Assembly: GCF_003334785.1 (NCBI RefSeq)
Contig: NZ_QOWV01000004.1
Origin: Escherichia coli
GTDB lineage: Bacteria > Pseudomonadota > Gammaproteobacteria > Enterobacterales > Enterobacteriaceae
DNA: 64,000 nt
Reading direction: 5' to 3' (one strand)
Below are positions 19,305 to 21,615 of the stretch, in pieces (the stretch's first letter is position 1; the number at the start of each line of letters is the position of its first letter). The notes beneath the pieces are model-generated. The model did no database searches and had not been told where the DNA came from. It worked only from the letters and a program-made list of their open reading frames with translations. The position numbers were made by a program, and so were the translations under genes.

Positions 19305-19446
19305 GATGATATCCTTAACTAAAGGTGTCATTTTGATATCCTCACAATACGCTTGTTCGGCGGAGTAAGAACCCGGATAACAATGATGATGATCATCAGT
19401 TATTTTGACGATCTGCCTGAAGGTGAAGATTTATAAGGAGTTGTCG

Positions 19447-20220
19447 ATGTCAGTACCTCTCATTCTGACCATACTGGCGGGGGCAGCCACGTTTATTGGC
19501 GCGTTTCTCGGCGTTCTCGGGCAAAAACCCTCGAACCGCTTACTGGCGTTTTCGCTAGGTTTTGCGGCGGGGATCATGTTGCTCATCTCATTAATGGAAA
19601 TGCTTCCTGCCGCACTAGCAGCTGAAGGAATGTCGCCTGTGTTGGGTTATGGAATGTTTATCTTCGGTCTGCTTGGCTATTTTGGCCTGGACCGCATGTT
19701 GCCACATGCTCATCCGCAGGATTTAATGCAAAAATCGGTGCAGCCGTTGCCAAAATCGATCAAGCGCACAGCCATTCTGCTCACTCTCGGCATCAGTCTG
19801 CATAACTTCCCGGAAGGGATTGCCACCTTTGTCACGGCGAGCAGCAACCTGGAGCTGGGATTTGGCATCGCACTGGCCGTCGCGTTGCACAATATCCCTG
19901 AAGGTCTGGCAGTGGCAGGCCCGGTTTATGCGGCAACGGGGTCTAAACGCACCGCGATTCTGTGGGCGGGGATTTCTGGACTAGCAGAAATTCTTGGTGG
20001 TGTGCTGGCGTGGTTAATCCTCGGTAGCATGATTTCCCCGGTGGTCATGGCGGCAATCATGGCGGCGGTTGCAGGAATTATGGTGGCGCTCTCGGTTGAT
20101 GAATTAATGCCGCTCGCCAAAGAGATTGACCCTAATAATAACCCCAGCTATGGCGTACTATGTGGAATGTCAGTGATGGGATTCAGTTTAGTGCTGCTAC
20201 AAACGGCGGGAATTGGTTAA
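19447..20220 (+). CDS. zupT: zinc transporter ZupT (ZIP family)
   Basis: Start set at [20 protein letters not shown]..., 257 aa, multi-TM. Confidence 0.9.
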
Positions 20221-20277
20221 AAACAACATCAGAAGTTGTCCAGCGCATGGACAACTTCTGCCAGCTTCACGAAAGCC

Positions 20278-20448
20278 TTATTCTACCTTTTCGGCTGTCT
20301 CTTCTCTCGTACTGTTTAAGTATTTGTTCCGCGCTTCAAGCAGTGCGTCTCTGTCCTGGCGAAACGCCCGACAATAACGTTTCAAATGCAGGAAATAACC
20401 CACCACAACCAGAGCAATCAATACAATCCAGTACCAGGCGATAAACAT
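20278..20448 (-). CDS. hypothetical small membrane protein (about 56 aa, one N-terminal TM helix)
   Basis: ORF MFIAWYWIVLIALVVVGYFLHLKRY... with AAGGG Shine-Dalgarno-like sequence upstream; ORF track starts it at an upstream TTG. Confidence 0.3.
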   Translation of the reverse strand: MFIAWYWIVLIALVVVGYFLHLKRYCRAFRQDRDALLEARNKYLNSTREETAEKVE

Positions 20449-20641
20449 CCTTTTACCCTTAATATTTAACAATACTAAACATTTAGCGTATAAATTTCAC
20501 ATATCCTTTTTCGGATATATTCATATGGTCGCATAATAACGGAACAATTATATGATTTTGATCATAATGAAAAAGAATGCCTGATATTAATGAAATTTTC
20601 TCATAGAAAGAGAAGCGGAATTAACATCTTGCATAGCAGGG

Positions 20642-20676
20642 AAAAATAAAAACCGAAGCCTGCTACAACTTCGGTT
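20642..20676 (-). terminator. rho-independent terminator downstream of ribB
   Basis: aaccgaag...cttcggtt stem followed on the minus strand by a U-run, 34 bp past the ribB stop. Confidence 0.5.
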
Positions 20677-20709
20677 TCTTGATTAAGGCAGTAAATTAAG
20701 CAGCGGTTT

Positions 20710-21363
20710 TCAGCTGGCTTTACGCTCATGTGCCTGACGGTATGCCACCAGGTCTTCAATAGTCACGAGCGCCATATTGTGTTTATTGGCAAACTCAATA
20801 CACTCTGGTGCACGCGCCATCGTGCCATCGTCATTAGTCAGCTCACACAGTACACCAGCCGGTTTAAAGCCTGCCAGCGTCATCAGATCAATAGTTGCTT
20901 CAGTATGACCGCCACGCGTCAGTACACCACCTGCCTGAGCGCGAAGTGGGAAAACGTGGCCAGGACGATTCAGATCTGACGGTTTTGCGCCATCGGCAAT
21001 CGCTGCGCGAACGGTCGTAATACGGTCAGCGGCAGAAACACCGGTAGTCACACCTTCAGCTGCTTCAATGGTCACGGTAAAACCGGTGCCATAGGCGCTG
21101 GTGTTATTTTCTACCATCATTGGCAGATCGAGTTGTTTACGGCGATCTTCAGTAATGCACAGGCAAACAATACCGCTACCGTGGCGAATGGTCAGCGCCA
21201 TCTGCTCAACAGTCATGGTTTCTGCCGGGAAGATCATATCACCTTCGTTTTCACGGTCTTCATCATCAAGCACCATTACACCGCGTCCTTCACGCAGCGC
21301 AGCCAGTGCATTTTCAACACGTTCGAAAGGCGTACCAAAAGAGGAAAGTAGCGTCTGATTCAT
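20710..21363 (-). CDS. ribB: 3,4-dihydroxy-2-butanone-4-phosphate synthase
   Basis: 217-aa [45 protein letters not shown]... Confidence 0.95.
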
Positions 21364-21439: not shown

Positions 21440-21615
21440 CGTGAGCGGGTCCATGCCCGACAGAATCGTTACTCTCTCCCATCCGGACTCTAACCGTCGG
21501 CCCCGGAATTACACCGGATCTGCTGTCCTTTGAGTTCGCACCCAAAGCGCTCGCGGGCTTTCAACTGAGTTGATTTACCGCCGGTGGGGAATTTCGCCCC
21601 GCCCTGAGAATAAGC
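21440..21615 (-). promoter_or_regulatory. sroG: FMN riboswitch (RFN element) in ribB leader
   Basis: Minus strand reads ...ggggcagggtgaaattcccaccggcggtaaatcaactcagttgaaagcccgcgagcgctttgggtgcgaactcaaaggacagcagatccggtgtaattccggggccgacggttagagtccggatgggagagagtaacg... Confidence 0.85.

Follow-up and report, generated by a model that had tools for sequence, protein, structure and literature searches.

Introduction

Some membrane proteins of fewer than 60 residues, such as AcrZ, MgtS, MgrB, KdpF, CydX, and PmrR, are small modulator proteins located in the enterobacterial inner membrane. On the transcriptional side, the FNR consensus TTGAT-N4-ATCAA has TGAT-N4-ATCA as its core, and class II activation takes place from a site centered at -41.5. 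One small Escherichia coli gene to be compared with both is yqiD. VanOrsdel et al. (2018) placed it among 36 short ORFs for which a SPA-tagged chromosomal product was seen on an immunoblot, and among 13 small proteins that were also positive in a tetracycline ribosome-profiling screen (PMC6001520). YqiD was detected in aerobic LB cultures, and most of those 13 proteins, a set that includes YqiD, were found at high levels in growing cultures (PMC6001520). The b-number of the gene, b4756, appears in a 2026 paper. Our search of the literature on yqiD, b4756, DUF4051, and FNR in combination with zupT/ribB found no functional study of E. coli YqiD and no report on its interactions; most other papers that mention "yqiD" concern an unrelated Bacillus subtilis gene or misprint YqjD.

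Here, we analyzed the spacer between zupT and ribB in a 64,000-nt stretch of E. coli DNA (contig NZ_QOWV01000004.1; this whole stretch is called the window), for which an earlier note made from the letters alone had proposed a possible small membrane protein. With a probability of roughly 0.85, we conclude that this ORF is yqiD, an annotated gene for a predicted single-pass inner-membrane protein; the gene has its own, probably FNR-activated promoter, and its product is a candidate modulator of a larger membrane protein.

Results

The window segment is the zupT–ribB region of E. coli, with the gene order ygiC, ygiD, zupT, spacer, ribB, FMN riboswitch, ubiK, and a fimbrial operon. The spacer between zupT and ribB spans 489 bp (20221-20709). 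Its genes and transcript boundaries are as follows:

19447..20220, plus strand: zupT, the convergent downstream neighbor of yqiD and a candidate functional partner by position only
20220..20260, minus strand: yqiD terminator of the intrinsic type, which has a 13-bp stem (20260-20230) and then a T run and extends up to the zupT stop codon
20278..20448, minus strand: yqiD coding sequence, 56 codons and a TAA stop, from ORF calling and RefSeq annotation
20648..20679, minus strand: terminator of ribB, a unit boundary that separates ribB transcription from the yqiD promoter
20710-21363, minus strand: ribB
21467-21615: FMN riboswitch upstream of ribB, from Rfam

The coordinates and the translation of the minus-strand 56-aa ORF given by the earlier note were exact, with the ATG at 20448-20446 and the TAA at 20280-20278. 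When complete E. coli genomes in RefSeq were searched by megablast, the spacer matched, at 100% identity, DNA annotated as "yqiD: protein YqiD"; in strain NCM3722, this coding sequence is WP_000469266.1, which is 171 nt long and flanked by zupT and ribB. The 56-aa product of the window ORF is exactly the YqiD (b4756) sequence printed in PMC6001520, its strand and its zupT and ribB flanks are those of K-12 yqiD, and the yqiD spacer of the window is identical to that of K-12. yqiD is a known gene, whose name, annotation, and evidence of translation have been in place since 2018, and the earlier finding is correct but not new. Two of the checks that the note had proposed, ribosome profiling and an epitope-tagged chromosomal fusion, already exist in print as the tetracycline screen and the SPA-tag immunoblot (PMC6001520). 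Further along the window, the fimbrial operon begins after ubiK (22311 onward) and its usher ORF (22913-25426, 837 aa) is intact; in NCM3722, an IS2 lies shortly after ygiL. The window is therefore from an E. coli strain other than K-12 (neither MG1655 nor NCM3722), despite its K-12-like yqiD spacer.

The note had also left room for a chance ORF in AT-rich DNA, a reading in which any conservation would come from DNA or RNA elements. The spacer is indeed AT-rich, with a GC content of 38% over 20221-20709 and 31% upstream of the ORF, versus 51% for the whole window; however, it is not featureless as had been thought, since it contains two terminators, an FNR-type palindrome, and an extended -10 element. 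Length alone is no evidence for the ORF, because 473 out of 2000 shuffles that preserved the dinucleotides of the spacer (24%) yielded an ATG-started ORF of at least 56 aa. Nucleotide conservation also extends to the 5' UTR, which would fit a chance ORF as well. The conservation pattern and the published detection of the protein are what place yqiD beyond chance. A sensitive blastn search recovered the frame in 5425 of 5426 complete E. coli genomes, and protein searches found relatives only in Escherichia, Citrobacter, Salmonella, and a few further enterobacteria; a profile search of 1.84 billion representative proteins returned 25 clusters at E <= 0.001. We also scanned 100,044 species genomes with a degenerate DNA pattern encoding A-[FY]-R-Q-D-R-D-A-L. 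The pattern occurred in 27 enterobacterial genomes, belonging to Escherichia, Citrobacter, Salmonella, Intestinirhabdus alba, and "Enterobacter sp. kpr-6", and the ORF was intact in every one of these 27 species-representative genomes. Klebsiella and, with "kpr-6" set aside, Enterobacter did not appear among the hits. Another 12 matches fell in unrelated taxa, where eight had no ATG-started ORF and four lay in unrelated ORFs; these were treated as chance matches.

For the analysis of selection, we compared nine taxa over codons 1-42, the core that aligns without gaps. pS ranged from 0.45 to 0.94 for all pairs except E. coli/E. albertii (0.17), while pN was 0.03-0.25 and dN/dS was likewise 0.03-0.25. 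Variable columns numbered 20, 15, and 35 at codon positions 1, 2, and 3, respectively, and the annotated frame was the only one free of internal stops in all nine taxa. The yqiD frame is under purifying selection, and its synonymous sites are saturated, which bears out the conservation with mostly synonymous change that the note had named as a further check. The invariant or near-invariant residues are M1, I3, W5, Y6, W7, Y18, H21, K23, R24, Y25, C26, A28, F29, R30, D32, R33, D34, A35, and L36; the last ~14 residues are variable, yet charged throughout. A chance ORF accounts neither for amino acids that are kept while synonymous sites saturate, nor for variation that falls mostly on third codon positions in the one frame open in all taxa, nor for a SPA-tagged protein (PMC6001520), and we consider it next to impossible. 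RefSeq annotation, tagging, and purifying selection agree on a genuine small membrane protein.

Other observations concern the limits of the gene. A longer ORF of 64 aa starting at a TTG (20278-20472) was rejected as the coding frame; the ATG is preferred because a 1-nt indel in an upstream A run (AAAAGG versus AAAAAGG) shifts the frame of the TTG extension between species. In E. coli AVS0968, a wastewater isolate, IS1 interrupts yqiD after codon 30 (L004, 2501-3343), so the gene is dispensable at least there. Two database proteins are chimeric: one joins the 70 N-terminal residues of ZupT to a YqiD-like C terminus, and the other joins the N terminus of the UbiK ORF to the C terminus of YqiD (P0123 and P0103). 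Short contigs from metagenomes or read assemblies are the source of these two proteins, which are probably artefacts of assembly or gene calling.

The protein has three parts:

residues 2-20: predicted membrane helix, from hydropathy and charge
residues 21-42: conserved basic helix, HxKRYCRAFRQDRDALL
residues 43-56: variable charged tail

Residues 2-20 are hydrophobic and uncharged, with a Kyte–Doolittle mean of 2.43 over 19 residues, and residues 21-35 contain five K/R and two D/E, in line with the transmembrane helix and charged tail described in the note. With its predicted helix, YqiD falls within the size (less than about 60 aa) and single-transmembrane design of the small membrane-protein modulators. 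According to the positive-inside rule, which is well established, the basic stretch HLKRYCRAFRQDR should lie in the cytoplasm and the near-absent N terminus should be periplasmic. The predicted topology thus has a periplasmic N terminus, residues 2-20 spanning the membrane, and H21-x-KRYCRAFRQDRDALLEAR together with the charged tail on the cytoplasmic side. AlphaFold, run with the family alignment, gave a single continuous helix from residue 2 to 55 at moderate confidence (mean pLDDT 73, pTM 0.34). His21 is invariant and Cys26 near-invariant, and Citrobacter and Salmonella have an additional Cys20; judging from these residues, H21 and C26, with C20 in those two genera, could bind a metal.

Family searches gave no assignment. 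In NCBIfam, the best model was NF038143 (HYxxLL), at 18.2 bits versus a cut-off of 50, and in Pfam-A there were only weak matches driven by the membrane helix (DUF2621, DUF6526, and DUF4381), with an E value of 8e-4 for YqiD against DUF2621 and E <= 0.001 for two of the 27 aligned family members. Several Salmonella and Citrobacter orthologs carry the label DUF4051 in NCBI or UniRef, a name that is silent on function; the DUF4051 profile matched neither YqiD nor any of the 27 aligned members, and the model may be absent from the copy of Pfam-A used. PADLOC gave no match for YqiD, and a profile search of PDB sequences gave none at E <= 1.

Being small and hydrophobic, with a single helix, a promoter of its own, and no family assignment, YqiD might also be a type I toxin-like membrane peptide, restrained by an antisense RNA and involved in membrane damage or persistence. 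We found no promoter-like site on the strand opposite the ORF or its surroundings and no Rfam match to an antitoxin RNA, and each genome has one copy, which always occupies the same chromosomal position and is vertically conserved across several genera. To our knowledge, none of the Ibs, Ldr, Hok, and TisB peptides has a long conserved charged cytoplasmic helix like that of YqiD. Abundance in growing cultures, as reported for most of the 13 ribosome-profiled proteins to which YqiD belongs (PMC6001520), also speaks against a toxin, and we hold this reading to be extremely unlikely.

Upstream of yqiD, we aligned the 190 nt before the start codon in nine taxa whose upstream neighbors differ. The elements found on the window are as follows:

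20456..20460, minus strand: AAGGG, Shine–Dalgarno-like, 7 nt before the ATG; AAGG(G/A/T) is kept in eight taxa
20449..20518, minus strand: predicted 5' UTR of ~70 nt, its start site predicted from the -10
20525..20533, minus strand: extended -10 element TGCGACCAT (TG-n-xAxxAT), with the TG and the final AT invariant
20552..20565, minus strand: FNR-type inverted repeat ATGATCAAAATCAT, core TGAT-N4-ATCA
20558..20571, plus strand: overlapping site TTGATCATAATGAA, the weight-matrix prediction of Myers et al. (PMC3688515)

The AAGGG is the one already pointed out in the note, and it sits at 20460-20456. The palindrome ATGATC-N4-TCAT (20552-20565) is invariant in all nine taxa and in 27/27 species genomes, and downstream of it come an invariant TG and, five bases on, an invariant AT. 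The gap from the palindrome to the TG is 18 nt throughout (nine of nine taxa, 27/27 species genomes), even where the spacer sequence between them is unrelated (loci L009 and L049). ATGATCAAAATCAT agrees with TTGAT-N4-ATCAA at eight of ten consensus positions, including the full TGAT-N4-ATCA core. With a predicted start at 20518-20517, 7-8 nt after the -10, the palindrome is centered at -40.5 to -41.5. The more distant homologs (L016-L019) have no palindrome; two of them, L016 and L018, share CTACTTATAAAGTGGTA about 55-75 nt upstream, which suggests a different promoter arrangement there. The left half of the palindrome (20552-20557), and not the right, contains an invariant GATC, a site of Dam methylation, and the methylation state of this GATC might affect binding.

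Published ChIP data fall on the same place. Myers et al. (2013) reported an FNR peak at 3181647 (U00096.2), described as "5' of zupT/ribB" (PMC3688515, Table S5) and called by all three ChIP-seq peak callers as well as by ChIP-chip. A sigma70 ChIP-seq peak at 3181649 had a signal of 395 aerobically versus 1002 anaerobically (adjusted p 6.7e-83; PMC3688515, Table S2). The target of the FNR peak was listed as "Unknown" (PMC3688515, Table S9); yqiD was unannotated in 2013, when the fnr transcriptome was analyzed (PMC3688515). Their predicted FNR site, TTGATCATAATGAA, was placed at 3181683 (PMC3688515, Table S6). Since this sequence lies at 20558-20571 of the window, it fixes the conversion of coordinates, in which the window position equals the U00096.2 position minus 3161125. 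The difference between U00096.2 and U00096.3 we take to be ~1977 bp. After allowing for it, the offset is consistent with the U00096.3 coordinates in PMC6001520. In U00096.3, the palindrome would fall at ~3183655-3183668 and the predicted start, an A at 20518 (±1 nt), at ~3183621. Converted in this way, the FNR summit lies at ~20522 and the sigma70 summit at ~20524, that is, on the predicted -10 and start site of yqiD. yqiD is probably the target of this orphan FNR peak. As to the site itself, we favor the conserved palindrome over TTGATCATAATGAA, because TTGATCATAATGAA is not conserved outside E. coli and would be centered at ~-46.5.

From the comparative anatomy of the promoter and the published ChIP data, we infer that FNR activates yqiD at a class II sigma70 promoter. 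Some points run against activation: the outer T/A of the consensus is missing, the matrix of Myers et al. prefers the site 6 bp away, the distant homologs are without the palindrome, and the start site is a predicted one. Moreover, a scan for consensus promoters reports exactly TTAATA-18-TATGAT (20590-20561), in which the -10 TATGAT is the left half of the palindrome and is conserved as part of it. FNR bound there would repress a sigma70 promoter, and such an arrangement would suit a protein that is readily seen in aerobic LB (PMC6001520). However, taxa do not share the -35 region of that promoter, in contrast to the downstream TG-n-xAxxAT, which is conserved at its fixed 18 nt; sigma70 occupancy is 2.5 times higher, not lower, under anaerobic conditions (PMC3688515), and the sigma70 summit (~20524) is beside the downstream -10. 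We therefore regard repression as unlikely and retain activation through the downstream -10. Detection of the protein in aerobic LB (PMC6001520) does imply that the promoter is not strictly anaerobic.

A role for ArcA found no support. ArcA sites have a repeat spacing of 11 nt, and a candidate site in the UTR, with TGTTT/TGTTA repeats 10 nt apart, was rejected. zupT and ribB are absent from the ArcA ChIP supplements, which report no ArcA peak for the yqiD region. A second palindrome occurs on the other side of zupT: the ygiD–zupT intergenic sequence at 19384-19398, ATGATGATGATCATCA, contains the perfect 12-bp palindrome TGATGATCATCA with two overlapping TGAT-N4-ATCA matches. None of the FNR peaks of Myers et al. 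(PMC3688515) is at this position, and one possible role for TGATGATCATCA is that of an operator acting on the diverging promoters of ygiD and zupT.

Conservation of the predicted 5' UTR (20449-20518, …TAAATGTTTAGTAATGTTAAATTTTAAGGGTAAAAGG) is far stronger than that of synonymous sites in yqiD. A conserved fold was not supported (z-score -1.7; consensus structure energy -1.07 kcal/mol with one compensatory pair), and the constraint could reflect an operator, pairing with an sRNA, or a translation enhancer. An Rfam scan returned only the known FMN riboswitch upstream of ribB and otherwise noise below threshold. One such hit, at 20641-20711, where the ribB terminator lies, was to the enterobacterial sRNA STnc240 (29 bits versus a gathering score of 55, E 0.19); it probably represents the 3' end of ribB rather than a separate gene.

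At the 3' side, zupT is convergent and directly downstream of yqiD in all 30 loci that could be evaluated by tblastn, and in two taxa (L009 and L018), the yqiD homolog overlaps the 3' end of zupT by 4-18 bp. Read on the plus strand, the hairpin of the yqiD terminator has no T run. This layout would fit a locus that works mainly through its transcript, with convergent transcription or antisense to the zupT 3' end tuning zupT and the peptide being secondary: the convergent order never varies, the ORF reaches into zupT in two taxa, and the intergenic hairpin is without a T run on the zupT side. Yet this would leave the strong purifying selection on the YqiD protein unexplained, the E. coli yqiD terminator precedes zupT, and no conserved RNA structure was found. 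We consider a transcript-based function very unlikely, and a protein-coding role for yqiD is retained. The constant pairing with zupT may have a functional basis, or it may simply be inherited synteny, since insertions would seldom hit a gap of only ~60 bp.

The upstream neighbor is not fixed: K-12-type E. coli, C. freundii, and others have ribB there, whereas assT-dsbL-dsbI occupies this place in Salmonella, C. rodentium, and C. amalonaticus, and E. albertii and ~990 E. coli genomes have a fimbrial operon. Because of this variation, yqiD does not depend on ribB transcription.

E. coli itself has two classes of yqiD allele, with ~4430 genomes carrying the type of the window and ~990 carrying a second type. 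The second allele is 81% identical over the first 108 nt, has a tail ending in …LAARSKLDKRSDKE[L/V]FEKHQ, and is annotated only as "hypothetical protein". In the allele comparison (L003/L015 and L002), identity drops from ~96% to 58-84% right after the zupT stop codon, although the encoded ZupT does not differ. At synonymous sites, the two alleles are as far apart (pS 0.70) as E. coli is from Salmonella, and the pattern points to an old allelic replacement. In second-allele genomes, a fimbrial operon lies between yqiD and ribB (E. coli IPCEC42, L015, 8450-13422), and assT-dsbL-dsbI is inserted between ygiC and ygiD. The differing placements of the fimbrial and assT genes therefore represent the same kind of island at different insertion points around yqiD. 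In a published comparison of E. coli isolates, upstream non-coding variants, predicted promoter strength, and a GFP reporter all pointed to the same difference in expression among isolates for four genes, one of which was yqiD (bioRxiv 10.1101/2025.06.10.658842). That difference fits the two very different upstream contexts.

Discussion

Judged from its sequence, yqiD is a monocistronic gene: it has a promoter of its own, a predicted 5' UTR of ~70 nt, a Shine–Dalgarno site, and, directly against the zupT stop codon, an intrinsic terminator. FNR bound to the palindrome near -41.5, together with the extended -10 element, would activate the sigma70 promoter, and the level of YqiD would rise without oxygen. 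In the manner of other bacterial membrane proteins of this size, YqiD would most likely dock through its membrane helix on a larger membrane protein, and its conserved membrane-adjacent helix would modulate that partner, for which the divalent-metal importer ZupT is the sole candidate by position. Such a role of YqiD as a small-protein modulator is speculative, though we favor it over other functions. A narrower version, in which FNR-induced YqiD docks on ZupT or another anaerobic membrane complex and tunes divalent-metal uptake through a metal-sensing site made of His21 and Cys26 (with Cys20 in Citrobacter and Salmonella) on the cytoplasmic face of the membrane, seems distinctly unlikely to us; if it were true, the orphan FNR peak would gain a target and YqiD would be a new small-protein regulator of a ZIP-family transporter. 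The analysis adds to the known gene a testable regulatory context, namely a conserved class II FNR-type promoter on an orphan peak, and one fixed neighbor, zupT. These two leads could guide a first functional experiment on YqiD.

Compared with known systems, the window ORF shows no difference from E. coli K-12 YqiD (b4756; WP_000469266.1) and is the same gene. With class II FNR-activated promoters, the yqiD promoter shares the TGAT-N4-ATCA core and a predicted center at -40.5/-41.5, and the published ChIP data at yqiD add FNR occupancy in vivo and higher sigma70 occupancy without oxygen; it differs from the FNR consensus in that the outer positions are swapped, with A...T in place of T...A. 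Type I toxin peptides (Ibs, Ldr, Hok, TisB, and ShoB) are, like YqiD, small, hydrophobic membrane products of intergenic genes, but YqiD has no antisense partner that we could find, a single conserved copy, a likely high abundance during normal growth, and a long charged tail. The label DUF4051 links YqiD to orthologs and to no described function. Finally, YqiD shares with AcrZ, MgtS, MgrB, KdpF, CydX, and PmrR a length of less than 60 residues, one membrane helix, a small gene of its own, and a promoter linked to a growth condition, but it has no sequence similarity to any of them, and its charged, conserved cytoplasmic helix is unusually long.
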